The notes below the pieces were generated by a model, which had not been told where the DNA came from, made no database searches, and worked only from the letters and a program-made list of their open reading frames with translations. Shown piece by piece: positions 48,480-63,666 of a stretch of 64,000 bases of DNA. Position 1 is the stretch's first letter, and each line of letters opens with the position of its first letter. The position numbers and the translations under genes are program-made. Origin of the DNA: an uncultured Bacilli bacterium (GTDB lineage Bacteria > Bacillota_I > Bacilli_A > RF39 > UBA660); assembly GCA_910584255.1 (NCBI GenBank), contig CAJTXV010000006.1, positions 1,280 to 65,279 on the forward strand, given 5' to 3'.

Positions 48480-49658
48480 TTATAAATCTTTCAATGCTTT
48501 ATCTATTTTTCTATCCTTGAATTTGATTATAATGAATATAATCAATAAAATAAATAAGGAAATTCCCCCGATGATATAATGCTTTTTTTCTAGTTTTATT
48601 TTTAATTTTTTTGATTTTTTCTTATTTTTATTTTTCTTATTGGTAGTAGTTAGATTCTCTTTTGTTGTATCTTTTATTTTCGCAGAAATCGTATAAGTTC
48701 TTTTTTCCCCATTTTCAGCTGTGACTTCGATTTTTACTTGATGATTATTTGCTTCTAAGTTATCGAAACCTATTATATTTTTTGTTGCCTTTTCGTCTTC
48801 TGGTGTTGCTGTTACATTTAAGGAATTTACATCTTTTAAAATTTCAATTTCATAATCATTTACATTTTTATCAAAGGAAAGTTGATAGTTTTTCACCTGT
48901 AGTAAACTTAAAAAATTATTATTTGATTTTTCTAAAGGTTGATTTGTATTTGTACTCGGATTTGAAGTTGGAGTAGAACTGATTTTAGGCGCTACCTTCG
49001 TTTCAAGGTTTTCTTTGATGGTATCCGTTTTAGGAGTTTCTGGTTGTGTATTTCCAATTTGACTTGTCGGTTCTTTGATTTCTGTTTGTTCTGTTTGATT
49101 AATTAAAATGGATTTATAAGTATTTTGTGCAACGTTATACTGACGTATATTATTTTTCATTGACTCTTCTAGATTTTCTTCATCTAGACTTAGTAAATCT
49201 ACATACCATACTCTAACATTATTAATTTTAACCATGGTAACTACATCGGTTGTTTGTTTTACATAAAAACGAATGGTCGTATTGATATTATTACAAAAAA
49301 CTTCATCTTGGCATTGTGTACTAAAAGCATCATTTCCATCATAAATGGCATATACAGTATAGCGACCAAAATCTCCTGAGATTTGTGTATTCCATGCATC
49401 ATGATTAAATGTCGTTGGTAGTAATACTTGTTGATTACATTCTATATCGTACTCAATATATGCAATATAAAAGGCATGGTCTCCTGTATCCCCGACTCCT
49501 GAAAAATTAATAGAGAATGATAAATCCACTTCTTCTCCTACTTTAGTTTCCCCAGGACCTGTAATATTAGAACCTGTAACCATTATAGAATCTATCGCTT
49601 TTACACGAAATGGTATTAATAAACAAATCACAAGTAAAATTAAAAATTTCTTTTTCAT
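48480..49658 (-). CDS. Membrane-anchored surface protein: signal peptide, cohesin-like(?) N-module, Thr/Pro/Asn linker, one cadherin-like repeat, C-terminal TM
   Basis: Signal peptide MKKKFLILLVICLLIPFRVKA. ...GETKVGEEVDLSFSINFSGV...IAYIEYDIECNQQVLL... Then FLSLLQVKNYQLSFDKNVNDYEIEI...VTAENGEKRTYTISAKIK. TM helix YIIGGISLFILLIIFIII. Confidence 0.7.
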   Translation of the reverse strand: MKKKFLILLVICLLIPFRVKAIDSIMVTGSNITGPGETKVGEEVDLSFSINFSGVGDTGDHAFYIAYIEYDIECNQQVLLPTTFNHDAWNTQISGDFGRYTVYAIYDGNDAFSTQCQDEVFCNNINTTIRFYVKQTTDVVTMVKINNVRVWYVDLLSLDEENLEESMKNNIRQYNVAQNTYKSILINQTEQTEIKEPTSQIGNTQPETPKTDTIKENLETKVAPKISSTPTSNPSTNTNQPLEKSNNNFLSLLQVKNYQLSFDKNVNDYEIEILKDVNSLNVTATPEDEKATKNIIGFDNLEANNHQVKIEVTAENGEKRTYTISAKIKDTTKENLTTTNKKNKNKKKSKKLKIKLEKKHYIIGGISLFILLIIFIIIKFKDRKIDKALKDL

Positions 49659-50413: not shown

Positions 50414-50442
50414 AACAAAAAAGAAAAAGTGCCGAAGCACTT
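50414..50442 (-). terminator. Rho-independent terminator at the end of the Rhs/immunity array
   Basis: Minus strand: aagtgc-ttcg-gcactt followed by TTTCTTTTTTG, 12 nt after the stop at 50455. Confidence 0.6.
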
Positions 50443-50454
50443 AATTCTTAATTG

Positions 50455-50946
50455 TTACTTATTCATTTCATCTATTAAAGTACCATCTTTTTCCGCATTT
50501 TTTAGTGACCAGATTATCCCCCAATCGATGGTATTAATATTTTCCCAACCAATTCCCTCAAAATTCATGATTATATCGGATTCTTTCTTATATTTATTAT
50601 TCTTATCAATTATATTAAAATTTAATTGTTTCAACTCCCTTTTATTAAATGAAAATATCCTCATGGCATCTGTATATTTACAACGACCATTTACTTCTTT
50701 TATAAATTGGAGTTTATTGATTATGCTTTTATTAGGCTTTTCAGTTCCAACCCAATTATAAATAGCCACAATATCATGTTTATGAGAATATTTTCTTGGT
50801 AAACTTCCTATATTCATTTCTGCTATCCCTATAACTCTCAAAATCACATATCCTTTATACCATTTATTATCTTTAACTTCATCACTTTTAATTTGATATA
50901 GAAGTACATCCCCTACATCCCAAATTGGTTTTCCTAAAATAATCAT
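50455..50946 (-). CDS. Hypothetical 163-aa protein, likely orphan immunity protein
   Basis: Small cytoplasmic ORF last in the toxin/immunity array. No motif recognised; the call rests on position only. Confidence 0.4.
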   Translation of the reverse strand: MIILGKPIWDVGDVLLYQIKSDEVKDNKWYKGYVILRVIGIAEMNIGSLPRKYSHKHDIVAIYNWVGTEKPNKSIINKLQFIKEVNGRCKYTDAMRIFSFNKRELKQLNFNIIDKNNKYKKESDIIMNFEGIGWENINTIDWGIIWSLKNAEKDGTLIDEMNK

Positions 50947-50998
50947 CTTTACCTTTTTTTCTCTGGTTGAGGTGAATTTAATTTTTCTTTTAGTTCCC

Positions 50999-51310
50999 CT
51001 AATACTTTTTTCTTTTTGAATATTGATTTTTATTTTCTTCCCATCTTCCTAAATTTTTTCCTTCATCAATATGCTTAATTGCCTGTTCTTTTACTTCTGG
51101 AAGTAATCTTTCATATTTCCACTGGGTATCTGCCAAAGCAAACCAAAATAATGGTCCATCGTCTTCATCTTCTATCAAATCAATATTTCTTTCAATTACT
51201 TCTTTTGTCGCTTCTATATTTGAATAACCTATCTTTAACCAATTTAGATAATCACTTCTTACATCACATGTTACATCATCTTGATATAATCCTACTCCCC
51301 ATGCTCCCAT
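50999..51310 (-). CDS. DUF4259-like protein, putative immunity protein for the orphan GIY-YIG-like toxin
   Basis: N-terminal MGAWGVGLYQDDVTCDVRSDY matches the DUF4259 signature (MG-W-G-x-G-x-(F/Y)-x-(N/D)-D). Starts 12 nt after the orphan toxin stop. Confidence 0.55.
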   Translation of the reverse strand: MGAWGVGLYQDDVTCDVRSDYLNWLKIGYSNIEATKEVIERNIDLIEDEDDGPLFWFALADTQWKYERLLPEVKEQAIKHIDEGKNLGRWEENKNQYSKRKKY

Positions 51311-51322
51311 AGTTTTTCCTCC

Positions 51323-52162
51323 TTAATTACATGAAAATATATTTTCTGAACGCCACATCATGGCTGAATCCCAATACAACTGATATCTTGGATTCTTTAT
51401 TGATACACCGTTTATTTGATTATTCATTGGAAATTCTTTATTTCTCTTTAATGTTCTACATTCCATGATTAATGCTTGTTCTAATCCTCTCGCAGCATTT
51501 GCTGAAACATTGATTGCTACAGAATCAAAAATCAAATCTGTCCTAAACGGATTATTATGATGTCTATATTTAGTTGCCTGAATATCCTCTGTTCTACCCA
51601 CATATTCAACCATATGTGTAATAGGGTCTCTAAGAACATATACATTATGACCATCCTCTTCATCTTTCTGCCTAGGTTTAGTAAGTTCACTTACAACATC
51701 TTGTACAGCGTTAACAACAGTTCCTACAACTTGTGTTACCGCACGAACAATCACAGGTGCAGTCTTAACAGCAACATATCCTAATAGTACACCTAGTCCA
51801 AATGCTCCAGCAGCTCCAGTAGCTGCAAAACCACCAAAGGCAACAGCCACCGCAAAATTACCATCCGAGTCAACTAAGGTAATTGGGTTATTACTAGTAT
51901 AAGCATATAGATTATAACTATGAATATCTTGATTTGCTCCAATAATACCATCAACATTTATAAACCTACCCCACACTGGATTATAATACCTGCTATTTAA
52001 ATAATATAAGCCTGTTTCTGTGTCATAGTAGTATCCTCTATATCTAAATGGATTGATGATTCCTATATTAGTTTCATCTGTAATTTCATTTTGATTATGA
52101 TCTTTGATACTTAATAATTTTCCCCATGAATCATATTCGTAAGTTACAATTAAGCGATATTC
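51323..52162 (-). CDS. Start-less orphan Rhs C-terminal cassette: Rhs-core tail + Gly/Ala-rich hydrophobic segment + GIY-YIG-like nuclease toxin domain
   Basis: The frame is open from the in-frame TAA at 52163-52165. There is no ATG before the GTG at 51976 that the ORF track used. It reads EYRLIVTYEYDSWGKLLSIKDHNQNEITDETNIGIINPFRYRGYYYDTETGLYYLNSRYYNPVWGRFINVDG...LYAYTSNNPITLVDSDGNFA, then VAVAFGGFAATGAAGAFGLGVLLGYVAV, then ...HNVYVLRDPITHMVEYVGRTEDIQATKYRHH...ARGLEQALIMECR...N (GIY-x10-YxG-R...R...E...N). Confidence 0.7.
   Translation of the reverse strand, partial: EYRLIVTYEYDSWGKLLSIKDHNQNEITDETNIGIINPFRYRGYYYDTETGLYYLNSRYYNPVWGRFINVDGIIGANQDIHSYNLYAYTSNNPITLVDSDGNFAVAVAFGGFAATGAAGAFGLGVLLGYVAVKTAPVIVRAVTQVVGTVVNAVQDVVSELTKPRQKDEEDGHNVYVLRDPITHMVEYVGRTEDIQATKYRHHNNPFRTDLIFDSVAINVSANAARGLEQALIMECRTLKRNKEFPMNNQINGVSIKNPRYQLYWDSAMMWRSENIFSCN
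51851..52151. repeat. 301-bp homology block (orphan copy) shared with the 3' core of the Rhs gene
   Basis: Aligned by eye to 53053-53353 without gaps, ~21 mismatches (~93% identity). Identity stops exactly at the core/toxin junction (DSDGNFA) on one side and at IVTYEYDSWG on the other. Confidence 0.9.
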
Positions 52163-52166
52163 TTAT

Positions 52167-52619
52167 CTAATCTCCATAGGCAGAAAAAATCTCTTTAATT
52201 TTTCCGGTAGAAGGAATCAACTCTATTTTAGAAAAATGATTATTACTTGCATTATTTTTTAAAATTTTTAGTAATTTTTTATCCTTTGTATAGATTTCCA
52301 CAAACTCATTATCTGTTATAAATAATATCAACACACATTTACTTTTTAAAAATTCCTCATAATTATGAATCTCATAAATTTCCGTTTCTTTATTGTATAG
52401 TTGTATATTGCAAAAAACAGTATAATAATTCTCACTCTTTATTAAATTTTGAAATTCACTATTGGTATAGACTTGCTTATCAAACAATTCTAATCCTTTT
52501 TGAAAATATACCTCTGATTCAGCAATTATCCATTGAAAGTATCCTGTATCAATATGGGATAGTATCTTATTCAAGAAAGTGTTATATTCATTTTTTATCT
52601 TAAATCTTATTCCTATCAT
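52167..52619 (-). CDS. Putative cognate immunity protein of the main Rhs C-terminal toxin (150 aa)
   Basis: AAGGAGG RBS 7 nt before ATG 52619 (MIGIRFKIKNEY...), 13 nt after the Rhs stop. Small acidic cytoplasmic protein. It reminds me of DUF2691-type immunity proteins, but I cannot verify that. Confidence 0.55.
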   Translation of the reverse strand: MIGIRFKIKNEYNTFLNKILSHIDTGYFQWIIAESEVYFQKGLELFDKQVYTNSEFQNLIKSENYYTVFCNIQLYNKETEIYEIHNYEEFLKSKCVLILFITDNEFVEIYTKDKKLLKILKNNASNNHFSKIELIPSTGKIKEIFSAYGD

Positions 52620-52632
52620 AAAAATCCTCCTT

Positions 52633-55600
52633 TTAAGGCATTGAAACATTTAATGGGATAGTCCACCAAAAACTAGGGATTAAAGATGGTATTAATCTAA
52701 TACCTCTATAAATTAAATATCCTGTACCTATAGTGATTGTCGTATCTACAATAATTTTATCAGCACTTGAATTGTATGGCTCGCCTCGATGAGGGATACC
52801 ATCTTCATCCCAATTCCAATCATGAAAGTGGGGATTAGACAATTCTGGATGATGATTAGGATGACTGTAATCAGTATCTTTGGTTGCTCTTCCATCAGAG
52901 CCATAGTCACGTAAGTCTCCATTGGGTTTTTTCAATCTAGAATTAGGCTCAGAAATTGTAGGTAATTTATTTTTATTTTCGGACTTTTTTACGGTTGCAG
53001 TTTTTTTATTTGTCATCTGTAAATTCGCTCCTATAAAAGCACCCGCAGCTGCCGCAAAATTACCATCTGAATCAACTAAAGTAATTGGATTATTACTAGT
53101 ATAAGCATATAAATTATATCCTAGCATATCTTGATTTGCTCCAATAATACCATCAACATTTATAAAACTACCCCACACTGGATTATAATATCTACTGTTT
53201 AGGTAATATAAGCCTGTTTCTGTGTCATAGTAGTATTCTCTATATCTAAATGGATTAATGATTCCTATATTGGTTTCATCTGTAATTTCATTTTGATTGT
53301 TATCTTTGATACTTAATAATTTTCCCCATGAATCATATTCGTAAGTTACAATTTCATTATAGTCTTTATCAAGTATTCCTATAATATCTCCTTGTAGATT
53401 CTTTATGTAATAATATGTATTGTCATTATACTTGAATCCTACTAATCCTGTTAAATCATATAGATAGTAAATCGTATTATTTCCTCTTTGTTCATAGATG
53501 ATATTATTATTTTCTAAGTAGTATTTTGTTATTTCTCCATTTACATTTTTTTCTGTTCTAATTCCATCTTTGTTATACTTATAGTTAATTTCTAGATTCT
53601 TTGAGGTATCTTTATAACTATTTAAACTTCTACCATTGATCCAATCTAGAGTAATAGAGTTTCCAACACTTAATGGATTTCCAATTGCATCATAAGTAAT
53701 CTCTTGATTGTTAAATCTTGTTAATTGGTCTTCCCAATTAGAATTTTGATACTCATACGTATCTGTTCTTATTATAGCATCTGTTTCTAGATTTTTGGTG
53801 ATTTTTGTTAGTAAATTTCCAGAATTGTCGTAAATATACTCCGTCTTTTCATTTCTTTCTTTGTTTTCCTCTTTGATTAATTCATTGTATTCATCATAAT
53901 AATATTGATTTTTAAGAATATTATTATAGTAAATATGAGTTATATTATTTAGTGAATCATATTTATAAGAATATTTATTATTTCCATTTTGAATACTATT
54001 TACTAAAGTTGAGGTTCTTTTACCCATTGAAATATAATTATAATTTATATTGTAATTGTCATTAATTTTTTTACTTACTAATCTTTCTAAATTATCATAT
54101 TGATAAGAGAATACTTGGTTATCCATAGAAGCCATTAGTAAGTTATCACTTTCATCTAATGTATAATGAATTTGGTTTTCCTTATCTTTTAACTTATAAT
54201 TCCTATCTGTGATACTATTATTCTTGTTATAGTCATAATTAATTTCAAAATCTTCATCCTTCTTGCTAATAAGCCTATTCGAATTATCATAATAAAATTG
54301 CTCAGTACTAGCATCTGAAATAATCTTTGCGATATTTCCATTACTGTTATATCTAAAACTATAATTATGATCCATTTTATGTAATTCTTTTGTTCTATCA
54401 AATTGATCATATGCAAACGTTATTTCTTGATTATTTCCATAAGTTGTTTTTACTAAATTCCCATTATTTTCTTCATACTCATTTGTAACTAGAGTAATAT
54501 TATCTCCAATTTTTACAGTTTTTAAATTTAAGAAATCATCATATGTAAACTTATATTCTTTATTTCCTTGTACGATTTTATCTAACATATCTTGATTATT
54601 ATAAGTATAATTTACTACTTTCTCTTTTTGCGTTACCGAAGTAACTTGCTTTTTATTATTATAGGTATATCTTGTAATTTGACCTTTTGCATTTGTCATC
54701 GATTTTGTTAATCCTGTTTTTGTATCTGTATCATATTCTGTTTTATTTAAATTACTATCTGTTACACTTGTTAAAAATTTTCCATCTTCTGTGTAAGTGG
54801 CTGTATTTTCAATAAATTCTTCTTCTAATAATTCAAAGTAGAATTCAAAAGATGGATCATCTGCTACTAGGTTAGCTACTTCTAAAGAAGTCCCATTTGA
54901 TTTTAAGTATTGGGTTTTATTTGCTAATTTTAGGTAGTAACTACCATTTTTATTTTCTTCTAAATGAAATAGATTATTTTGATTTTTATCATTTAAAATT
55001 ACAATATTATTGGTATACTCTATAGAAAAACTAGGAATCAGTGTATAGACAATTTTAAACATATCCCCTGATTTTTCTAAATTCCATAAAGTATTACTAC
55101 AAGAATCTTTTTCAAGAAGTATATTACTATATTCTGCTTTTAAGTATTTTTCTGTACCTCTACTTCGAATCTTATATGTTCCTTCTATCATAGTTTCTGA
55201 ATCTATTCCTACAATTGGGCTAAAGTTTGCTGGTAATTGGTAGAGAGACTTTTTACTGATTCTTGTTGAAATGGGGTTACCAAAAGAGTCATATGTAATT
55301 TTGTTATTAATTCCAGTTGACGTAATCGCGCTTGTTACTCTATCCTTTACTACATTATCATACTCATATTTAAAACGTTTTCCCTTAGGAGTTGTTGCAT
55401 TAATTAACTGATTACTTTTATCATACTGAAATGTATTACGAACATTATTCGTATCATTCGTACTAATTAAATTCCCATAAGTATCATAGTCATAGTAAGT
55501 CGTATTTAAATCCTTACAAAAGAATATGTTTGTAATCCACATTTCATTTACTTCATTTATGTGATTAAAGCTAATTGTAATTGACTTATAATCGTAAGGA

Positions 55601-58600
55601 GCGATACTTTTATAGTTTAGAAATTGCCATTTTTTATTTGGAATAAATGCATCATTTACAATTGCATATTGTTGTTGATTCACATCGATTGGTTCATATT
55701 CAATATTTACAGAATTAATAATAGAAGAGTTATCACTAAATATCCCTTCATTTTTAAGCCAAAATGAAATGTCATATGAGTCTCCTGCATTTCCATGAAC
55801 GGGTATCTTTTTACTAATAGAACGTGAATTATTTAAATTTATTTTTAAAGCCCTATTTTTATTATGATTAAATTTAACAACTTGGTAAGTATCTGTTTTC
55901 GATGCATCAATTGGACTAGTTACCCAACCAGAAAGTCCATATGAAAAATCTGAATTTTCAACAATATTATAATCATTTGCGACTTCTCCTTCTTCTAATT
56001 GGATGTCATCAATATAGGTAACACTGTTATCTTCAAATAATATTCTAAAAGCTAATACAGTACCATCTGGCTCATGATAAATTGATAAGTCGTGTCTTTT
56101 AAAGTCATCCGATGCTTCTATTACTTTACTACTTTCCTTGATCCCATCATTACTAAAGTAGAAGAATTGTAATGTGACTGGTTGATCATTTTTAAAATAT
56201 CCACTAAAGGTATAATATTCTCCATCCTCTGCGTCAATTGCGACATAGCCAATTAATGCTTTGTTACCTTTTCCCATTACTTTTAAACTTCTATTTCCAG
56301 AAACGGAATAATCTGTAGAAAAACTAGTTTCAACTTCTCCATTTTGAAATTCATATTGATCCGTTTCGAAACTACTATTTGGAATCATGTTTTTAATATA
56401 TCGAAACATGGGTGTTGTGGATAATGGCTTATTTTTTTCATAATATCGAGTATCATTATTTTCACTCATAGAGTTAAATGTAGAATAAGCATGATTTAAA
56501 TCCTCTTCACTACCTAAGGTATTACTAGATATTTTATTACCACTAGAGTTAAATAGTATTAAATTTGCTCGATTTTTGTTATCAACTACACTCGTTTCAT
56601 TAAATCCATAATTAAATGTTAGAGATTTACCTAAGACTTGATTTAATCCATAATGGATTACCTTCTTGATACGATATGGAATTTCATCATAGTATTCATA
56701 CACTATTTTAGTATCATTGGTATCTGTAATTGCAGAAATCACATTTTTACTATTATACTCAAAAGTAGTAGTTCCATTTCTAGTTGTAATATAATTTACT
56801 TTATTATCAGTTATACCGATAATAGATTCGGAATCTGGACTCTTTACTTTCATGATATTGTTAGTACTATAGTCGATAGTAATTTCATCATTATCGGAGT
56901 CAACCATCTTTACAAGTTTGTTATCTTGACTATAGATAATTTGAATTCTATAACTAGAGGCATCTACAAATTCTTTTAAATAGTAAAGTTCATCTGATCC
57001 ATTATTTTTAGAGAAAATCATTCGATTATTATATTTATCTATGATTATATAATTTTCATTTTCTTTTTCTAGTTTTTGCATTAATCCATCTTCATCGCTA
57101 CAATATTCTCTTGTTTCATACCAATCATCCTCATTATAATTTGGATTTAAAATATCATCTATTGTTGGTTCTTTCTTTCCTGGTTTTAAAACACGGTGTT
57201 TTTGATTTTGAAAGTAATGAGTAGTTCCATCTCCATCTACATATTCATAATACTGCTTATTATCTATAGTTACTTCTTTTACTGTTTGATGCAAATTGAA
57301 TTTAAATCCATTATTCTTTACGATAACGTCATTGGTGTTATAAATTAGCTTTAGTGCTACAGGTAATTTACTACCAATCGTAGAAGCAAGTTCAAAAACA
57401 CCAACTAGATTTCCATTATATGTGTTAATTGATGTCGTTCCATCTGTGAATGATTGTGACTGATAGTCATAATAACTTTCTAATCCACTTTGATTTCTAT
57501 AGATAATTGTTAAAACAGGTGCAGGATTTGCATTTTCTATGGTGTGATTTTTTGAATAGAATGCAGGGTATGCAGAATCCACATATACTTCTTTTTCTGA
57601 CTTAATTAAAATTCCATAATTAGGAGTATCCTGATACCAATGTTTTACTAAATCAGTAATGTCATTGTATTGCTCACTTGTATATTGTGGATGAATCATT
57701 CCATTTTCTATAAAACTTCGATTTACAAATTGAACTGCATCTACTCTTTCATCATAGTTATGACTCATATTATCCCAGGAAGCAGTTTTTTCTGTCCAAG
57801 GAGTGGTAATTCTATGGATATGAACCTTTTGATTTGGAGCTACATTTGTTATATCTTCTAAAAGATATCCACATAATGTCAAAGATGCTTGAACGACTTC
57901 ACTCCCTGTTCCAATTGTTGGAAGATTAAATTTAAGGAGTGTTCGATTGATTCTATCTACTCCATTTACTTTTTCTACGCCTGCTTTTAGTATTGGTTGA
58001 TTATGTCTTACTTCTCCTGCATCTCCCGGATAAATATAGGTGTCATAGACACCTCCTCCTTGACTTTGATTGGTAATCGTTGGATCAATTCGTACGGGAT
58101 ATTTGACATTTCCAAAGGTTAGCCATTCATAATCTAGTTGTAACTTTATTTCATAATTTTCATCTTTTTCTTCTAAAAGATAGAATACATCATGACTTAC
58201 TTTTCCAGAACTATCTTCCATATAAGGAGCATCCACTATAAAGATTACTTGGTTTTCTCTTTTTGCTAGTATTGTGTTATGTTCTAGACTTAAAGTTAAA
58301 TTCGTATTTACAAGAAAAGATAATTTTTTCCTACTAGCTTCTTCATTTTGTAAACAAATCGTTTCTTTTACTTTTGTTGGTAACGTTTGATAAAGAATAT
58401 CAATTCCTTCTAGAATATTTTGATAAGTAATATCTAAATTTTTTCTAATTTTCTTTGCTTTTACCTCGTTTGCATCTTTTAATTTTAACTCTAAATAATC
58501 ATTTCCTTTTTCCATTCTTAAGAATGAATCTTTTGTATTTTCTTTATAAGAAACTTTGTAATCATTTTTCTTATTTTGATAATACCCATTTTTCTTTATT

Positions 58601-58743
58601 AAACTATTATCTATTTCTTCATAATGACCATTTTTCTGATAGTGAATATCTTTAGGATAGATTTTTGCTACGAAAGTTCCATCCTCTCTTAAAAAGTGTT
58701 TTTCATTGGGTTTTCTTTTAGAAATAATTTCTATTTCTTTCAT
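52633..58743 (-). CDS. Rhs/YD-repeat polymorphic toxin (2,036 aa) with DNRLRE-like N-region, two CBM-like jelly-roll inserts, a beta-trefoil-like insert, Rhs core and a ~140-aa unclassified C-terminal toxin domain
   Basis: Many YD repeats (YDTYGNLIS, YDSFGNPIS, YTEDGKFLTS, YDAIGNPLS, YDSWGKLLS ...). Core end is ...YYNPVWGSFINVDG...LYAYTSNNPITLVDSDGNFA (res ~1854-1897). N-terminus is MKEIEIISKRKPNEKHFLREDG with no signal peptide. ...VDRINRTLLKFNLPTIGTGSEVVQASLTL (res ~262-290). Confidence 0.9.
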   Translation of the reverse strand: MKEIEIISKRKPNEKHFLREDGTFVAKIYPKDIHYQKNGHYEEIDNSLIKKNGYYQNKKNDYKVSYKENTKDSFLRMEKGNDYLELKLKDANEVKAKKIRKNLDITYQNILEGIDILYQTLPTKVKETICLQNEEASRKKLSFLVNTNLTLSLEHNTILAKRENQVIFIVDAPYMEDSSGKVSHDVFYLLEEKDENYEIKLQLDYEWLTFGNVKYPVRIDPTITNQSQGGGVYDTYIYPGDAGEVRHNQPILKAGVEKVNGVDRINRTLLKFNLPTIGTGSEVVQASLTLCGYLLEDITNVAPNQKVHIHRITTPWTEKTASWDNMSHNYDERVDAVQFVNRSFIENGMIHPQYTSEQYNDITDLVKHWYQDTPNYGILIKSEKEVYVDSAYPAFYSKNHTIENANPAPVLTIIYRNQSGLESYYDYQSQSFTDGTTSINTYNGNLVGVFELASTIGSKLPVALKLIYNTNDVIVKNNGFKFNLHQTVKEVTIDNKQYYEYVDGDGTTHYFQNQKHRVLKPGKKEPTIDDILNPNYNEDDWYETREYCSDEDGLMQKLEKENENYIIIDKYNNRMIFSKNNGSDELYYLKEFVDASSYRIQIIYSQDNKLVKMVDSDNDEITIDYSTNNIMKVKSPDSESIIGITDNKVNYITTRNGTTTFEYNSKNVISAITDTNDTKIVYEYYDEIPYRIKKVIHYGLNQVLGKSLTFNYGFNETSVVDNKNRANLILFNSSGNKISSNTLGSEEDLNHAYSTFNSMSENNDTRYYEKNKPLSTTPMFRYIKNMIPNSSFETDQYEFQNGEVETSFSTDYSVSGNRSLKVMGKGNKALIGYVAIDAEDGEYYTFSGYFKNDQPVTLQFFYFSNDGIKESSKVIEASDDFKRHDLSIYHEPDGTVLAFRILFEDNSVTYIDDIQLEEGEVANDYNIVENSDFSYGLSGWVTSPIDASKTDTYQVVKFNHNKNRALKINLNNSRSISKKIPVHGNAGDSYDISFWLKNEGIFSDNSSIINSVNIEYEPIDVNQQQYAIVNDAFIPNKKWQFLNYKSIAPYDYKSITISFNHINEVNEMWITNIFFCKDLNTTYYDYDTYGNLISTNDTNNVRNTFQYDKSNQLINATTPKGKRFKYEYDNVVKDRVTSAITSTGINNKITYDSFGNPISTRISKKSLYQLPANFSPIVGIDSETMIEGTYKIRSRGTEKYLKAEYSNILLEKDSCSNTLWNLEKSGDMFKIVYTLIPSFSIEYTNNIVILNDKNQNNLFHLEENKNGSYYLKLANKTQYLKSNGTSLEVANLVADDPSFEFYFELLEEEFIENTATYTEDGKFLTSVTDSNLNKTEYDTDTKTGLTKSMTNAKGQITRYTYNNKKQVTSVTQKEKVVNYTYNNQDMLDKIVQGNKEYKFTYDDFLNLKTVKIGDNITLVTNEYEENNGNLVKTTYGNNQEITFAYDQFDRTKELHKMDHNYSFRYNSNGNIAKIISDASTEQFYYDNSNRLISKKDEDFEINYDYNKNNSITDRNYKLKDKENQIHYTLDESDNLLMASMDNQVFSYQYDNLERLVSKKINDNYNINYNYISMGKRTSTLVNSIQNGNNKYSYKYDSLNNITHIYYNNILKNQYYYDEYNELIKEENKERNEKTEYIYDNSGNLLTKITKNLETDAIIRTDTYEYQNSNWEDQLTRFNNQEITYDAIGNPLSVGNSITLDWINGRSLNSYKDTSKNLEINYKYNKDGIRTEKNVNGEITKYYLENNNIIYEQRGNNTIYYLYDLTGLVGFKYNDNTYYYIKNLQGDIIGILDKDYNEIVTYEYDSWGKLLSIKDNNQNEITDETNIGIINPFRYREYYYDTETGLYYLNSRYYNPVWGSFINVDGIIGANQDMLGYNLYAYTSNNPITLVDSDGNFAAAAGAFIGANLQMTNKKTATVKKSENKNKLPTISEPNSRLKKPNGDLRDYGSDGRATKDTDYSHPNHHPELSNPHFHDWNWDEDGIPHRGEPYNSSADKIIVDTTITIGTGYLIYRGIRLIPSLIPSFWWTIPLNVSMP
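53053..53353. repeat. 301-bp homology block (main Rhs copy)
   Basis: See 51851-52151. Encodes Rhs residues ~1798-1897. Confidence 0.9.
53720..53816. repeat. Parent copy (inside the Rhs gene) of the 97-nt fragment at 50302-50398
   Basis: See 50302-50398. Confidence 0.85.
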
Positions 58744-58744
58744 A

Positions 58745-59374
58745 CTATGCCACTCTCTTCCACATATAAACTACTAAATAAGGGGGCATATTATTATGTG
58801 CTCTTCCTCCACCAACACCTGCAGTAATACCATTTACAGAATGTACATGATTTCCTGCAATGTGAATCGAATGTGGATTGTGATATTTTGTACCACCATT
58901 AGAACCATTAGATAAAGCATCTCCTGGATCATAATAGTGATGATGGCTACTTCCAATATAGGTTGCCCAAACTCCATGACTATGTACTCCTGCTTCGCTA
59001 GTATTTAGATTCACACTGTGGTAATGATATGGCATTTCTTCACCACTTAATGTATGACTTGCTTCTCCTCCCGTAGTACCATTTTGATAAGTATTACCTG
59101 CTGCGAGTAGAAAAGTATCTTGGATTCTCTCCCATGTCCCTCCAAATACTAATCCTGGATTGGTATTATTAATTGACATATAGATAGATCCTATTGGATA
59201 TACTTCTATACTATCTGATACCGTAAGACTTTTCACCTTCAAATTCCCATCTTTATCTAGTTCAAAGTTATTATTTTTAGAAGTAATACAAGATACATTT
59301 AAATTATCTACTTCTAAGTTTACATTTTCCCCTTTTTTAGTAAACAAATTTACTATATATTCATTTTCATTCAT
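58745..59374 (-). CDS. Phage tail-collar / baseplate-fibre-like protein (209 aa), translationally coupled to the Rhs gene
   Basis: ...VYPIGSIYMSINNTNPGLVFGGTWERIQDTFLLAAGNTYQNGTTGGEASHTLSGEEMPYHYH...HSH...HVH...GGGRAHNNMPPYLVVYMWKRVA is the C-terminal collar-type receptor-binding domain pattern seen in Firmicute prophage tail fibres. Start set at MNENEY (59374) after AGGAAGG. Stop TAG 58745-58747 lies 1 nt before the Rhs ATG. Confidence 0.7.
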   Translation of the reverse strand: MNENEYIVNLFTKKGENVNLEVDNLNVSCITSKNNNFELDKDGNLKVKSLTVSDSIEVYPIGSIYMSINNTNPGLVFGGTWERIQDTFLLAAGNTYQNGTTGGEASHTLSGEEMPYHYHSVNLNTSEAGVHSHGVWATYIGSSHHHYYDPGDALSNGSNGGTKYHNPHSIHIAGNHVHSVNGITAGVGGGRAHNNMPPYLVVYMWKRVA

Positions 59375-59400
59375 ATTTTTTCCTTCCTGCTTTCTATTTT

Positions 59401-59506
59401 TGATAAGAAGGAATAACTTATATTTAGTCACATACAATATAATGACTATAGAATAATACCTAATTTTGGGAGAGATTAGCTTTATTCTTAGTTACCCTTC
59501 TTATCA
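59401..59506 (-). promoter_or_regulatory. ~105-nt nested inverted-repeat structure in the leader of the collar-Rhs operon
   Basis: tgataagaagg(a)ataact (59401-59418) is the reverse complement of agttacccttcttatca (59490-59506): 11 perfect bp plus 6 more with one bulge. An inner tagtca/tgacta pair lies in the loop. The structure ends ~25 nt before the collar-gene ATG and has no U-tract, so it is not a terminator. Confidence 0.3.
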
Positions 59507-59596
59507 TTTTTGTGTTTTTTGTTCGAACTATCCACACACTATAATATATGAAGGGTTTTAATAAAGGATTAGGTTATTCGTCTATAATTTAATCTT

Positions 59597-60019
59597 TTAT
59601 TTCTTTTTTTTTATATTTTTTTCTTCAGAATCATTTATTTTTTTTCGGAACACTTCTAAAGAAGAAATTAATATTTTAGGTAATCGAATTCCCATTTCTG
59701 TACAATTTTCTAAAATAGAAATAATTTCACTCAGTAGAAAAGAATATGTTACAAGAGTTCTTAATACATTTTTCATACCTAAAACATTTTCAATAATCAA
59801 AGAAACTCCTATGACTATAAAATAACTAATTTTTTTAAATATTTCTTGAATACACTTACTACGATTCATTTTCTTTTTTAAATATGCTTTTAATAAATCT
59901 GTAAAAAGGTCTAAAATTACAACAATTATTAAGTATTTTAAATTGATATCAATATTACTAAATAGAAAAATAATACTTAAAAAGATAAAGCTAAAAACAA
60001 TCAATATAAATAGAATCAT
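59597..60019 (-). CDS. Holin, 'toxin secretion/phage lysis' family (Phage_holin_4_1, TcdE-like)
   Basis: 140 aa with 3-4 TM helices. VILDLFTDLLKAYLKKKMNRSKCIQEIFKKISYFIVIGVSLIIE and TYSFLLSEIISILENCTEMGIRLPKIL line up with the TcdE blocks ISFDTLLGCLSAIKSRKFNSS...GIRKVAMIACIFFLSVVD and FFSILFILYESVSILKNMCLCGLPVPKRL (recalled from memory). Charged Lys-rich C-terminal tail. Confidence 0.65.
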   Translation of the reverse strand: MILFILIVFSFIFLSIIFLFSNIDINLKYLIIVVILDLFTDLLKAYLKKKMNRSKCIQEIFKKISYFIVIGVSLIIENVLGMKNVLRTLVTYSFLLSEIISILENCTEMGIRLPKILISSLEVFRKKINDSEEKNIKKKK

Positions 60020-60150: not shown

Positions 60151-60432
60151 TTACATATTGAATAAGTCAAAATTTGATCCTGTCTCAACTAGATATAGTA
60201 TTAATTCATCGTTTATGATTTTATAAACTAATAACCAATCTGGTTCTATGTGACACTCTCTACACCCTTTATAATATTTGTTATCATTTAAACTATGATC
60301 TTTATATTTTTTATCTAATTGTTCTCCACATGCAAGTATTTCAATTACAGTTTCCATTTTAGAAATATCTTTGCCTTGTCTCAAGAACTTTTTATATTGT
60401 TTTTTAAAATTATTACTTCTTTTGATGCTATA
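60151..60432 (-). CDS. yafQ: YafQ/RelE-family type II toxin, possibly decaying (no canonical start; active-site His replaced)
   Basis: ...YKDHSLNDNKYYKGCRECHIEPDWLLVYKI...LVETGSNFDLF matches YafQ (YKDHPL...RDAHVEPDWILIYK...RTGTHAALF). The frame is open right up to the antitoxin TAA (60433-60435) and encodes YSIKRSNNFKKQYKKFLRQGKD, but the only start-like codon is TTG at 60384. Confidence 0.65.
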   Translation of the reverse strand, partial: YSIKRSNNFKKQYKKFLRQGKDISKMETVIEILACGEQLDKKYKDHSLNDNKYYKGCRECHIEPDWLLVYKIINDELILYLVETGSNFDLFNM

Positions 60433-60717
60433 TTAATCGTCACTATTTAAATCCTCCATTAGTTCTTTTACACTATGGAAACTTTTATATTCTTCTGGGT
60501 GTCTTTCCATATAATCTAGTTCTTTTAAGGCTTCAGCAAGTTCTTTAGAAGGCTGTTGTTTTATTTCAAAAGGTATTCCCCTTTCATAGATTGCTTTTTT
60601 TAAAAACATATTAATTGCTGTTGTCATATTCAATCCTAGACTATTAAATAAACTAGTTGCTTCTTCTTTTACATCAGTGGGAACATTAACATTTATTGCC
60701 GTTGTCATATTTGCCAT
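60433..60717 (-). CDS. dinJ: DinJ/RelB-family type II antitoxin
   Basis: MANMTTAINVNVPTDVKEEATSLFNSLGLNMTTAINMFLKKAIYERGIPFEI (ribbon-helix-helix, DinJ-like). Start set at 60717 after AAAGGAGATGA. Confidence 0.75.
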   Translation of the reverse strand: MANMTTAINVNVPTDVKEEATSLFNSLGLNMTTAINMFLKKAIYERGIPFEIKQQPSKELAEALKELDYMERHPEEYKSFHSVKELMEDLNSDD

Positions 60718-60902
60718 TTTAATTTCATCTCCTTTTTGCAAATAAATTTTACCATACAAATATATTTAATGCCAACATCCTATATACATGTATCTTTATA
60801 TTGTGTATTATGTATTATATCCTTTGAATACTAAAAATATACCTATTTAATTTCTCGTTATATTTTAAGAATTTTAGTACTAATTCTTTTTTCTAAATCT
60901 GC

Positions 60903-60972
60903 TTGTATGAAAGATGGCTTTTTTTACCAAACAAAAACTAGTTTTGTTTTTATAACTAGTTTTATTGTTCTT
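60903..60972. repeat. Direct repeat copy B (70 nt); includes the last 11 nt of the thioredoxin-like gene
   Basis: See 60039-60107. The copy B end (ttattgttctt) is the stop plus the last codons (..EEQ*) of the 60962-61573 gene, so copy A carries a duplicated gene end. Confidence 0.85.
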
Positions 60973-61573
60973 CTATTGGTTCTTCTTCTACTTTTGTTTT
61001 TCTTCTTGCATAAATAATTAGAGAAATAATTAGAATAAATCCACCAATCACTAGAATATCTGTGATACCAAATGTTCTTTTGTAATTTATGGCTTCTATT
61101 ACTATATCATTTTTGTTTTTGTTTTCATATTCTTCTTGAATTGCTTCATAAATCTCTTCATTTAATGATTCAGAATATCCTGACCAAGAGTGTTTTCCTA
61201 TTACAATATAAGGAACACCCCCCGCATCATCACCTAATTTTCTAGCAACTCTTTCTAATAATTTTTGATTATTAGGGTGATTTACTTGATCCCAGACTTC
61301 ATAAGAGATTAAATTAAAATATTTTCCATATTCTTCAGTCATTGCCTCTAAATAAGTTAAAAACTCATAACAGTGAGAACAGCCAGAACCACGGAATAAA
61401 TAAATATTAGCTTTCTCTTCACTTTCTTTATAATCTGGGTGGTTAAAGTTAATATTTTCTTCCTGACAAGCTTCTTGTAGTCCTGTAGAAATATAATCTT
61501 CTGGTTTTGCAAGACAAGTAGTTGGTATTATTAAAATACTTAGTAATAGAAATACTATAATTCTTTTATTCAC
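60962..61573 (-). CDS. Thioredoxin-fold protein (CSHC) with N-terminal signal peptide and C-terminal TM anchor; paralogue of 31606-32115
   Basis: ANIYLFRGSGCSHCYEFLTYLEAMTEEYGKYFNLISYEVWD...GVPYIVIG aligns with INIYVFWGSGCPHCEELFRFLESIRSNYGKYYNVYGFEVWD...SVPYFIIG. GTG start in a GTGA overlap with the TPR gene stop. Confidence 0.7.
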   Translation of the reverse strand: MNKRIIVFLLLSILIIPTTCLAKPEDYISTGLQEACQEENINFNHPDYKESEEKANIYLFRGSGCSHCYEFLTYLEAMTEEYGKYFNLISYEVWDQVNHPNNQKLLERVARKLGDDAGGVPYIVIGKHSWSGYSESLNEEIYEAIQEEYENKNKNDIVIEAINYKRTFGITDILVIGGFILIISLIIYARRKTKVEEEPIEEQ

Positions 61574-63666
61574 TTCTTTTTCTCTCCTTCTTTTAAAAAT
61601 TCTTTTAGAAAATCATGTTCTTTGTCATATTGTTTTAAAATTTTATTTCCATAACTTTTGAATCCTATTTTATAATAACAAATCCCACGAATGATTTCCA
61701 TAGTTTCTGATATAAATTTTTCTTTTTTTAATTTTTTGATTTTAAAAAGTGCCCTTTTATAATTTTTTCTTTTATAATCTGAAATCACAATTAAAAGTAA
61801 ATCCTCTTTCTTCTTTGTATCTTGATATAATTCTACGGCTAGTTGGTGAGAGGTTTCTAAATCTTCTTTATTTTCTGAAAGTTGATAATTATAAATCCAT
61901 TCACGTTTTAAAAGACGATTCATCATTCCAAGCTTCTCTGCCTTTTTAAGACACTTCTTTGCTTGTTCTCTATCTCCCATACGATTTAAAATAGATCCTT
62001 CTTTTAGAATATTCTCTTTATTGATTCCTTCTATTTCTTGAATTTCTTTTTGATAAAGTAAAGCTTTTTCTAAATGGAAATCTTCTCTATTTTTTGCATA
62101 TTGACATTCTAAAAATACTTTTTTGTATAGATACAGTAATCTAGGAATAAATTTTTTATTCTTTTCTAACATGGATTCTAATTCAGAAACCCTATTTTCC
62201 TTTTCTAAGATGTCTAAATATAGTTCTAAGAACCAGGCATCCTTTTCCTTTGATAGATTAATTTGATTCATCCATTTCCTCATATCGCTGATTTCATCTA
62301 GTTCTAAGGAGCATTTTACTAAGTGTCCATAAGTATAAGACTCTTTTTCAGAAACGTTTAAAAAAAATTCTTTCGCAACTTTATAATTTCCTAACATTTC
62401 ATGACAAACCCCAACTTCGTAAGAATAACGGTTTAAATCCATTTCTGTATTATTTATATCAATCTGATTATATTTTTCTAAGGCCTCTTCATATTCATCT
62501 AATTGTAAAAGGCAAGTTCCAAGTTCTAATAAAACCCAATCATCATTTGGAATCCACTTGATGGCATTTTCTAATGCTTCTTTTTCTTCTTTCAGTTTTC
62601 CTAATTGTTTATAATTCCAAGCGAGATCACAATAAATTAAAGGATGTTCATCTATTTGTTTCGACTTTTTTAAATATGTAATTGCCTTTTGATAATTTTC
62701 CTGATCACTTTCTACTTTGGCTATTTCATAATAAATTCTACTCTTATACTCTGGATTTCTTTTCTGATACTCCTTTAAAACTTTCATTGCTTCTTCAAAC
62801 TTACCTCGTTCACGATAGAAGAGCGAAAAAGAAGTAATTCCAATGATATTTTTGGCATCTTCTGTAATTGCCTTTTGGTAGTAGAAAATAGCCTTTTTTT
62901 CTTTTCCTAGTCTACTATAACAATAAGCATATTTTACATAAACATGTGCATTCATTTCTCTTATTTTGGGTAACACTTCTAGTACTTGCTCATATTGATC
63001 ATTTAAAATATAAATATTGGCAAGATATAAAATATCCCAATCTGTATATTCATTTAATTCTATCAATTTTTTTAAATATACTTCTGCCTCGTTATAATTT
63101 CTTAAATTATAACTACTAGAGGAAAGTTCACGAATTACAGATGGATCCTCTGGATATTTTTTATAGATTTTCTTTTCTATTTCATAGGCTTTTCTAAAAT
63201 GACCTAAGTTATTTAAAACATTAGCATATCGAATTTGATAAAATGGATTCTTGGTACGTTTACAAATATGTTCAATATAAGGTTTCGACTTTGTGTCATC
63301 TCCAAGCATATTATAAGTTACATAAAATTGATAAAAAAGAGGGAGATTTTTTTTAGAAAGATAGTGTTCTATTTCTATTAAATGTGCGAGTGCCTGCTTT
63401 GGTTTTCCTAAAGCATTTAAACAGGTAGCTAAATGAAAATGATAAAATTTAGGACTAATTTTTTCTCCTACGTATTGCACTTTATAATATTCATTGGTAG
63501 CTTCTTCATACTGATATTTCATTTCTAAACATAATCCAAGATAAGCATGATAATCATCATAATCTAATTCTTCTTTATGGGTTTTAACGAGGTTTTCTGC
63601 TTTTTCTATCTTACCTTGTGATAGTAATTTTTGTACTTCTGATATTAAATTCATCTTTTTCACCAC
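61570..63666 (-). CDS. Tetratricopeptide-repeat (TPR) protein, 698 aa, cytoplasmic
   Basis: More than 12 recognisable 34-aa TPR-like units (...A..YY.KA...D..N......L...Y...G...EA...).. No TM helix or signal peptide. Confidence 0.75.
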   Translation of the reverse strand: MVKKMNLISEVQKLLSQGKIEKAENLVKTHKEELDYDDYHAYLGLCLEMKYQYEEATNEYYKVQYVGEKISPKFYHFHLATCLNALGKPKQALAHLIEIEHYLSKKNLPLFYQFYVTYNMLGDDTKSKPYIEHICKRTKNPFYQIRYANVLNNLGHFRKAYEIEKKIYKKYPEDPSVIRELSSSSYNLRNYNEAEVYLKKLIELNEYTDWDILYLANIYILNDQYEQVLEVLPKIREMNAHVYVKYAYCYSRLGKEKKAIFYYQKAITEDAKNIIGITSFSLFYRERGKFEEAMKVLKEYQKRNPEYKSRIYYEIAKVESDQENYQKAITYLKKSKQIDEHPLIYCDLAWNYKQLGKLKEEKEALENAIKWIPNDDWVLLELGTCLLQLDEYEEALEKYNQIDINNTEMDLNRYSYEVGVCHEMLGNYKVAKEFFLNVSEKESYTYGHLVKCSLELDEISDMRKWMNQINLSKEKDAWFLELYLDILEKENRVSELESMLEKNKKFIPRLLYLYKKVFLECQYAKNREDFHLEKALLYQKEIQEIEGINKENILKEGSILNRMGDREQAKKCLKKAEKLGMMNRLLKREWIYNYQLSENKEDLETSHQLAVELYQDTKKKEDLLLIVISDYKRKNYKRALFKIKKLKKEKFISETMEIIRGICYYKIGFKSYGNKILKQYDKEHDFLKEFLKEGEKKK

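Follow-up and report, generated by a model that had tools for sequence, protein, structure and literature searches.

The 64,000-nucleotide stretch of DNA analysed here (hereafter the window), taken from contig CAJTXV010000006.1 of an uncultured Bacilli bacterium, encodes a 2,036-residue Rhs/YD-repeat protein directly behind a small phage tail-fibre-like protein, which we call COL. Comparative genomics shows that these two genes form a unit of evidently phage-derived parts, tied exclusively to loss of the signal for the general secretory (Sec) pathway and recurrently linked to intact lysis cassettes and regulators. The interpretation we favour, and hold to be somewhat probable, is that the pair belongs to a large, phage-derived, Sec-independent family of Rhs toxins that would leave the producer by lysis and find their targets through a receptor-binding partner.

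The COL-Rhs pair and its missing export signal

The window has a GC content of 28%. A holin gene, COL, the Rhs gene and their island neighbours all lie on its minus strand, as do the domains and the leader described below. Read along that strand, the holin gene (59597-60019) is followed by COL (58745-59374) and then by the Rhs gene (52633-58743). An initial annotation, made from the letters of the window, had assigned the three genes to families, and searches of Pfam and NCBIfam returned the same ones (Phage_holin_4_1 / holin_tox_secr, Gp10_C and RHS_repeat). It had also placed the end of COL 1 nt before the Rhs start codon, which is correct: the COL ATG is preceded by AGGAAGGA, and its TAG is followed by one base and then by the Rhs ATG.

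We sampled other genomes from both members of the pair. Of the roughly 62 full-length COL genes found with COL as the query and one genome taken per species, 59 had an Rhs gene of the same four-part architecture beginning a few bases further on; loci that matched the collar domain only were ordinary prophage tail fibres. Reverse sampling with the Rhs N-terminus gave 80 species-level genomes, all of them metagenome-assembled genomes of uncultured gut Bacilli, 'Tenericutes' or the Erysipelotrichaceae type, and COL was found just upstream of the Rhs gene in 78. Every Rhs homologue in the 80 genomes starts at MKEIELIxKRKPREKHFL and has no signal peptide; the predicted absence of a signal is a trait of this family. 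Linkage in both directions bears out, at the level of a conserved unit, the earlier proposal that the collar-like and Rhs genes function as one, and gives strong support to the view that COL and the signal-less Rhs gene constitute a single conserved two-gene unit. Full-text literature searches found no description of a collar or tail-fibre protein paired with an Rhs protein, in agreement with the annotator's impression that the combination had not been reported.

The 1-nt spacing of the window is not conserved. Gaps between COL and the Rhs gene are typically 9-40 nt. They do not exceed 65 nt in 43 loci and measure 350-520 nt in another 26, about a third of the loci, in which the two are separated by a small additional gene. 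This intervening gene, present in about 26 of the 80 Rhs-sampled loci, encodes 105-135 residues with a coiled coil and a C-terminus resembling a helix-turn-helix, and has no family match; examples are found in L019, L024 (10588-10995), L040, L046 and L075, where L-numbers are our labels for the sampled relative loci. A small sigma-70 region-4 protein is often encoded just upstream of COL. Together the two suggest dedicated transcriptional control, as in clostridial toxin loci. Family searches with the small accessory genes c8, c13, c14, c20, c21 and c22 gave no informative match.

The Rhs protein matched RHS_repeat (E = 2.9e-23) and Tox-WTIP (5.6e-10) in Pfam, and DNRLRE, YD_repeat_2x and Rhs_assc_core in NCBIfam. 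Its N-terminal module (residues 1-430; 57454-58743), for which AlphaFold2 (AF2) gave an all-beta model with a predicted local distance difference test score (pLDDT) of 85, comprises an all-beta domain (residues 1-230; 58054-58743) and a putative glycan-binding domain of the CBM96/DNRLRE type (residues 231-430; 57454-58053), recognised by Foldseek and by a DNRLRE match at residues 234-413. There follow a central beta-rich region (residues 431-1080), the YD shell (residues ~1081-1900; 53044-55503), which scores 82.1 bits against RHS_repeat (cut-off 22) and 61.8 bits against TIGR01643 and which matches the Rhs cocoons 8h8a and 7q97 in a profile search of the PDB, and the C-terminal toxin (residues 1901-2036; 52636-53043), with Tox-WTIP at residues 1992-2036 (39.7 bits, cut-off 25). 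The Rhs-associated core occupies residues 1803-1894 (TIGR03696, 62.1 bits, cut-off 32.5); the cleavage-type motif NNPITLVDSDGNF, a candidate for autoproteolysis, can be read in the sequence. By its repeats, core, variable tail, immunity gene and orphan cassette, the protein qualifies as a predicted Rhs/YD-repeat polymorphic toxin.

The Rhs protein begins MKEIEIISKRKPNEKHF, and its ATG is the first start codon past an in-frame stop, so that no N-terminal extension is possible. The most hydrophobic 12-residue stretch within residues 1-70 reaches only 0.28 on the Kyte-Doolittle scale, and the protein thus has no h-region. The initial annotation had read this N-terminus as free of a signal peptide and of PAAR and LXG/WXG domains, and the Kyte-Doolittle scan and the Pfam and NCBIfam searches agree; it had also named a signal peptide, or a targeting domain of a type VII or type VI secretion system (T7SS, T6SS), as the finding that would speak against its proposal, and we looked for these in the Rhs N-terminus and found none. 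Three known classes were rejected on these grounds: WapA-type Sec export, for which the hydrophobic N-terminal segment is absent (maximum 0.28); a T7SSb LXG/WXG toxin, since there is no Pfam or NCBIfam match and residues 1-430 are modelled as all-beta; and a T6SS Rhs effector, since there is neither a PAAR match nor any T6SS gene among the window proteins tested. Genes for a T7SS or another exporter were likewise not recognised among those proteins.

The sharpest contrast comes from more distant relatives of the N-terminal module. A word-indexed search with Rhs residues 1-430 had returned only 28 fragments; an exhaustive hidden Markov model (HMM) search revealed a family of 2,370 clusters (E <= 1e-30, 50% identity). 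The signal-less subgroup makes up the majority of the top-scoring long members, and in more distant relatives the same motif is preceded by a classical Sec signal peptide and then a linker of 50-110 residues. We sampled this signal-peptide type in nine proteins on metagenome contigs, seven of them informative, and in 27 species genomes retrieved with a signal-peptide-type query; eight N-termini of the type were too diverse for a pattern search, and an alignment of three sequences worked. A clear signal peptide or hydrophobic N-terminus was present in 23 of the 27 genomes. COL was found beside the Rhs gene in none of the 27 genomes and on none of the seven informative contigs, nor was any holin or endolysin of the families seen by the signal-less type found beside these relatives in the genomes and contigs. 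COL is thus present in 78 of 80 genomes of one type versus 0 of 27 of the other (Fisher p ~1e-23, uncorrected for phylogeny). Two genomes hold both types of Rhs gene, and in each COL stands only by the signal-less one (L129 versus L178, and L130 versus L179). The signal-peptide type occurs mostly in Clostridia, and the split between the types likely goes back to one ancestral event and has been maintained for long since then. The signal-peptide relatives would represent a WapA-like form of the toxin that is bound to the wall and acts by contact, as in Streptococcus suis (PMC12704120).

COL, its phage relatives and the neighbouring lysis genes

COL encodes 209 residues from its ATG and matched Gp10_C (PF21939; E = 1.6e-21, 78.1 bits, cut-off 27), which represents the gp10 / tail-collar fold class, so that the original label of 'collar' was close. 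It also matches the PHROG tail proteins 5717/6465 along its full length, including the N-terminal part, and profile searches of the PDB returned the C-terminal domain of T4 gp10 (2fkk), 7z47 and also 5hx2. It is ~44% identical to the antireceptors of Lactobacillus delbrueckii phages, proteins that determine adsorption to lipoteichoic acid. The assignment was made from sequence and profile matches; the AF2 monomer model is poor (pLDDT 61). The receptor-binding protein gp22 of phage PBC1 was considered as a relative of COL and rejected as unrelated.

The protein consists of a conserved N-terminal part of 55 residues, a gp10-type collar domain and a hypervariable His-rich (HxH) insert at ~116-185, and has no signal peptide. 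Among 60 Rhs-linked COLs, mean pairwise identity by region is 0.48, 0.55, 0.12 and 0.63, the 0.12 being that of the His-rich insert. Database relatives number more than 3,000, many of which are stand-alone proteins of 180-217 residues whose N-terminal 55 residues are nearly invariant. COL is probably homotrimeric. At several loci COL paralogues occur in tandem arrays of two or three, with identical N-terminal halves and differing tips (L025 and L159). Some COL genes code for 360-430 residues, with an extra N-terminal domain of ~180 residues that matches phrog_5717. Examples of long or tandem genes are L024 9464-10606, L030 9464-10648, L025 9443-11595 and L159 8218-9751. A hypervariable tip on a conserved N-terminus is the signature of a receptor-binding protein, which we accordingly regard COL as a candidate for. 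That signature and the antireceptor homology uphold the initial description of a phage receptor-binding-type protein; for its further role as an adaptor, contact with Rhs is read from linkage only. No block of Rhs is better conserved than its first 50 residues (identity 0.59), which could be the site on which COL docks.

COL might alternatively stay inside the producer as a chaperone, stabiliser, assembly factor or secretion adaptor, Rhs then leaving by a non-lytic, TcdE-like holin or by an exporter yet to be recognised. Its strict co-occurrence with the signal-less state would suit such a role, as would the close spacing of the two genes in the window, where their translation is probably coupled, and the presence there of a holin without an endolysin; adaptor proteins are moreover known for Rhs effectors in T6SS and T7SS. 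Nevertheless, we judge this distinctly unlikely: a hypervariable tip in a receptor-binding-type fold, joined to a conserved N-terminus, is the pattern of a phage receptor-binding protein and not that of a chaperone, tandem paralogues differ in their tips only, the homologues of COL are antireceptors, and the window proteins tested include no recognisable exporter.

The Rhs N-terminal module also has phage relatives. Foldseek against the PDB superposed residues 231-430 on the CBM96-type modules 7vbo and 8wab (TM-score 0.66-0.68), only this half being recognised, and a PDB profile search by sequence with the whole module gave nothing, even at E 10. In BFVD, the model of residues 1-430 as a whole matched (E 1e-27) a 1379-residue protein encoded on a Siphoviridae contig from the gut. 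Residues 1-426 align with residues 5-382 of gp18 from Bacillus phage PBC1 (24% identity, E 2e-19), and the module matches phrog_37549 (1e-15). In PBC1 the gene for this homologue directly follows the tape-measure gene, and phage Carmen17 has the same layout. Phages of 'tail organisation C' have no recognisable distal tail protein (Dit), and the protein in question has been proposed to act in adsorption (Leprince et al., PMC9128512). PBC1 gp18 has no detectable YD shell or toxin, and the label 'YD repeat protein' given to such phage proteins therefore reflects the shared N-terminal module only. By homology, COL and the Rhs N-terminal module both derive from the phage adsorption apparatus.

Complete pairs are found in phage surroundings as well. 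In L043, L047, L053 and L079, and on the IMG/VR contigs L085 and L087, the pair comes right after siphovirus prophage genes for tail, holin and endolysin, which indicates that the module has a phage origin and shows where its association with lysis began. On a further IMG/VR contig, from a siphovirus of higher GC content (L086, 5423-8838), an insertion in reverse orientation separates the Dit gene from the Tal gene; it consists of a gene for an 892-residue protein with the N-terminal module and another of 238 residues. The module is placed within this tail operon much as cargo would be.

These relationships raise the possibility that the Rhs N-terminal module takes the place of the distal tail protein in a siphovirus-type tail or tailocin encoded elsewhere, with COL as the fibre of a toxin-tipped tail. 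The homology of the module to a protein that sits in the Dit position of Dit-less phages, the tail-fibre homology of COL and the existence of prophage-borne copies all fit such a particle. We nonetheless consider it very improbable, because no tail genes occur within 7 kb of the pair in 43 of 44 fully flanked loci, because the prophage-borne pair sits after the lysis cassette of a phage that has tail-tip genes of its own, and because the same module heads Sec-exported relatives, which is hard to reconcile with assembly of a tail in the cytoplasm.

What does often accompany the pair is genes for lysis. In the 44 fully flanked loci (at least 4 kb on both sides; genes counted within 5 kb), a gene for a holin-like protein and/or a peptidoglycan hydrolase was present in 30 and both were present in 25, counts that are lower bounds because the lysis HMMs were built from clusters of these same loci. 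The genes make up 14 different family sets, upstream of the pair in 12 loci and downstream in 20. Clustering of neighbours and family scans identified four holin-like families in addition to Phage_holin_4_1 and, among the hydrolases, two M23 groups, GH25 and M15; small sigma-70 region-4 proteins and XRE-type regulators also appear among the neighbour clusters. Within 2.5 kb of the pair, lysis genes number 2.3 per 10 kb, versus ~0.15 per 10 kb further upstream. Phage tail genes were near the pair in a single one of the 44 loci. Release of COL-Rhs by lysis is moderately supported by this pattern.

One alternative is that the whole arrangement is prophage debris or hitch-hiking. COL, Rhs and immunity gene would then have been a moron behind the lysis cassette of a temperate siphovirus, and in most genomes the prophage would since have decayed. 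Its holins and endolysins, that of the window included, would be leftovers or serve other ends, and export or use of the toxin would have nothing to do with them. Such a history would account for the pairs behind tail, holin and endolysin genes in the prophages above, for the serine recombinases and phage-type regulators near some loci, for the 14 of 44 loci that have no lysis gene nearby, and for two features treated below, namely a holin that in relatives belongs to a different operon and a leader that is kept where the holin is missing. We regard it as unlikely. Repeated recruitment accounts for the lysis genes better than a common remnant does, since they are intact, occur both upstream and downstream of the pair and fall into 14 family sets; they are set tight against the pair, none was found beside the signal-peptide-type relatives, tail genes are near only the one locus, and the holin of the window is under purifying selection. 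Whether the neighbours are prophage remnants was a question already posed in the initial annotation, and the answer is divided: intact lysis genes of varied families do adjoin the pair, with tail genes near 1 of 44 loci, but the particular holin seen in the window is not conserved across the family.

Organisation of the locus in the window

The holin (140 residues; 59597-60019) matched Phage_holin_4_1 (3.5e-25, 88.8 bits, cut-off 22.2) and TIGR01593 holin_tox_secr (3.3e-14, 52.9 bits, cut-off 40.2). Its description as a TcdE-type holin 222 nt upstream of COL was accurate, both curated cut-offs being passed. Three of its segments are hydrophobic and its C-terminal tail is charged; the gene is intact and under purifying selection, with dN/dS of 0.26-0.39 in comparisons with L081, L083 and L031. 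Outside the window, only L031 and the 88%-identical relatives L081-84 have it upstream of COL. In these relatives it is the third and last gene of an operon that begins with a tetratricopeptide-repeat (TPR) protein of 694 residues and a thioredoxin-like protein that bears a signal peptide and is membrane-anchored, with a 4-nt overlap and a 10-39-nt gap. The corresponding genes of the window encode a TPR protein (61570-63666) and a membrane-anchored thioredoxin-like protein with a CSHC motif (60962-61573; thioredoxin domain of phrog_22), and the order TPR / thioredoxin-like / holin / COL / Rhs is the same in L031 and L081-84, where the trio of holin, thiol-oxidoreductase and TPR protein recurs. 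A RelB/DinJ antitoxin and a RelE/YafQ-like toxin remnant (60151-60759; TIGR02384, TIGR02385) lie between the thioredoxin-like gene and the holin gene. This pair is an insertion, absent at that position in the 88%-identical L081-84, and is not part of the module; the RelE-like frame runs on behind the TAA of the antitoxin, with no start codon before an internal TTG, so that the toxin is probably inactive.

Between the holin gene and COL lies a conserved non-coding leader of the COL-Rhs operon (59375-59596), identified by alignments and nhmmer. It is about 220 nt long, its conservation exceeds that of the genes on either side, and an invariant core at ~59507-59555 holds the palindrome GTTCGAAC. 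A long-range helix formed by GAUAAGAAGG and CCUUCUUAUC is kept in five sequences, and the leader folds at -39.9 kcal/mol (z -4.5). The 3' arm, CCUUCUUAUC, is complementary to the COL ribosome-binding site. An Rfam search with the leader found no match. It may be a riboregulator or an operator, and its 3' arm could alternatively pair with the COL ribosome-binding site. nhmmer located the leader upstream of COL in the window, L081-84 (L081 9776-10000), L001 (~9770-10000), L031 and L010, of which L001 and L010 have no holin. Since the holin gene ends another operon and the leader is kept without it, the holin belongs to a neighbouring transcription unit. Two points of the initial annotation are thus not borne out as stated, that the TcdE-type holin heads the module and that holin, COL and Rhs may form one unit: the holin is the last gene of the operon upstream, a separate leader precedes COL, and this holin is confined to the near clade.

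Scans of the ~30 larger open reading frames (ORFs) of the window identified no capsid, terminase, portal, tail or endolysin gene; these ORFs are ordinary chromosomal ones, for polysaccharide synthesis, LCP proteins, an ABC transporter, a two-component system and FAD enzymes. The flanks of L081 are also devoid of phage structural genes. An intact prophage at the locus is ruled out, as no capsid, terminase, portal or tail gene adjoins it among the proteins scanned. The earlier statement that the island is 'not simply a prophage' holds for the window, which has no phage structural genes, but elsewhere the pair does stand directly behind a siphovirus prophage lysis cassette.

Downstream of the Rhs gene, and overlapping its stop codon by 17 nt, is the probable cognate immunity gene, encoding a DUF2691 protein of 160 residues (52167-52649; Pfam 1.1e-31). 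The pairing of this toxin tail with DUF2691 recurs in L056, and protection is predicted. Tox-WTIP is a two-helix membrane domain predicted to form pores (Zhang et al., PMC3482391). Next comes an orphan Rhs C-terminal cassette (51323-51976), recognised by sequence comparison and a match to the tail of Rhs_assc_core (1.2e-06), which repeats the last ~41 residues of the Rhs core almost exactly and then diverges into another tail, which resembles a GIY-YIG nuclease. The immunity gene of the cassette is split (50455-51310, as ORFs 50999-51310 and 50455-50946), the halves matching the N- and C-terminal parts of the 293-residue family c38, which is found after the Rhs gene in L004, L009 and L023; the split gene is likely a pseudogene. 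A terminator scan placed a terminator-like hairpin after it, at 50427-50442. A promoter scan was non-informative in this AT-rich DNA, with 88 matches against 76 expected.

Two cadherin-like proteins are encoded further along the window. One, of 1687 residues (2237-7300, minus strand), has 12 beta-sandwich repeats and a C-terminal type I dockerin; the second (48480-49658) lies close to the Rhs island.

Proposed mechanism, known systems and significance

Colicins and the TcdE-dependent clostridial toxins are precedents for release by lysis or through a holin. According to the mechanism that we favour, COL and Rhs would fold and associate in the cytoplasm of the producer, a COL trimer docking on Rhs. 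Exit would depend on holin action and, in many species, also on an adjacent endolysin, that is, on lysis of a sacrificial subpopulation, and the complex would then diffuse outside the cell as a bacteriocin. The variable tip of COL, together with the lectin-like domains of Rhs, would bind wall glycopolymers of related target cells, after which the encapsulated C-terminal toxin, here Tox-WTIP neutralised by DUF2691, would be released into the target envelope. The relatives with a Sec signal, being WapA-like and surface-bound, would need neither COL nor lysis genes. Release of Tc (toxin complex) toxins by the type X secretion system (T10SS) provides a precedent (PMC10847048).

Several observations weigh against this mechanism. 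The division into signal-less and signal-peptide types largely follows phylogeny (Bacilli versus Clostridia), and a single event in an ancestor may lie behind it, so that the statistics carry less weight. The N-terminal module is present in signal-peptide relatives that have no COL and so is not by itself a device for docking COL, and physical binding of the two proteins we infer from linkage only. No lysis gene was detected in the 14 loci mentioned above, nor near the close relative L001, and the link to lysis is therefore frequent but not obligatory in cis; the lysis families themselves are only partly annotated. In the window, a holin is present without a recognisable endolysin or hydrolase among the ~30 proteins tested, and this holin belongs in relatives to another operon. 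Finally, DUF2691 is soluble, which is odd for immunity to a toxin that acts on membranes. As a more specific and more tentative proposal, which we would put a little below an even chance, the pairs could be described as 'guided Rhs bacteriocins' of gut Bacilli: a diffusible cage with a head derived from a phage tail tip and a detachable, rapidly diversifying receptor-binding trimer of phage type, assembled in the cytoplasm and set free by a dedicated lysis cassette that was recruited separately and has its own regulators.

The known routes for polymorphic toxins are Sec, the type V secretion system (T5SS), T6SS, T7SS and the Photorhabdus virulence cassettes and other extracellular contractile injection systems (PVC/eCIS), and release by a lysis cassette is established for Tc toxins and the large clostridial toxins. 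The closest parallel is with the Tc (ABC) toxins and T10SS of Yersinia entomophaga (PMC10847048, PMC10847046), which share with the present system a large, signal-less YD/Rhs cocoon enclosing a C-terminal toxin, a separate subunit for receptor binding, here putatively COL, and, at many loci of the family, a phage-derived holin/endolysin cassette nearby. Tc toxins are released by lysis of specialised cells; here we propose lysis by analogy. They are Gram-negative systems with a pentameric TcA translocation channel, whereas the partner here is small, putatively trimeric and tail-fibre-like, and we found no TcA channel, TcB beta-propeller domain, SpvB or spanin in Rhs, COL or their neighbours. 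Tc toxins act on insect cells, whereas the targets here are presumably bacteria, given the immunity genes and orphan cassettes.

The pathogenicity locus (PaLoc) of Clostridioides difficile, with TcdR, TcdE and the endolysin remnant TcdL, resembles the system in its signal-less giant toxin, its holin of Phage_holin_4_1 / TIGR01593 and the phage ancestry of its release genes, and loci related to ours carry a small sigma-70 region-4 protein and a peptidoglycan hydrolase. It differs in that its toxin is a glucosyltransferase and not an Rhs cage with bacterial immunity genes; here, furthermore, receptor binding would lie with a separate, tail-fibre-like protein and the holin of the window is in a different operon. 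In neither the Tc/T10SS loci nor the TcdR / TcdE / TcdL locus does an Rhs cage occur together with a phage receptor-binding protein encoded on its own.

With the WapA-type toxins (Bacillus subtilis WapA, and S. suis WapA with DNRLRE; PMC12704120) the Rhs protein shares a YD shell, an Rhs core and a polymorphic C-terminal toxin with immunity, and its N-terminal module with DNRLRE/CBM96 also occurs in signal-peptide relatives. Unlike WapA, it has neither a Sec signal peptide nor wall anchoring, and its obligatory COL is absent from the WapA-type relatives. PBC1 gp18 and Carmen17 gp38 are homologous over the N-terminal ~380-430 residues, from the first residues and including the CBM96-like domain, but proteins of the gp18 type are ~1060 residues long and belong to a tail module behind the tape-measure gene, whereas here the module heads a 2036-residue toxin in a chromosomal island. 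COL, for its part, shares with the gp10/collar receptor-binding proteins (T4 gp10 and antireceptors of the L. delbrueckii LL-H type) a C-terminal fold family with the motifs YPxGSIY, GG.W and HNNMPPY, a variable His-rich insert and a conserved N-terminal attachment part; unlike them, it is a stand-alone protein of 180-220 residues, encoded outside any tail module and locked to an Rhs gene. The module thus belongs to the polymorphic Rhs toxins, which are known, and its mode of trafficking is probably new.

If the proposed mechanism is true, Rhs toxins of Gram-positive bacteria would have an additional export route, and polymorphic toxins a new trafficking class, a Gram-positive counterpart of the Tc toxins with T10SS. 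The family offers a natural experiment, with sisters that have a signal peptide and neither COL nor lysis genes and others that have no signal and both, and the question of what replaces Sec is thereby testable. A swappable tip combined with a swappable toxin would also be attractive for engineered, targeted antibacterials. Because the signal-less subgroup is found in abundant uncultured gut lineages, it may shape competition between strains in gut microbiomes.

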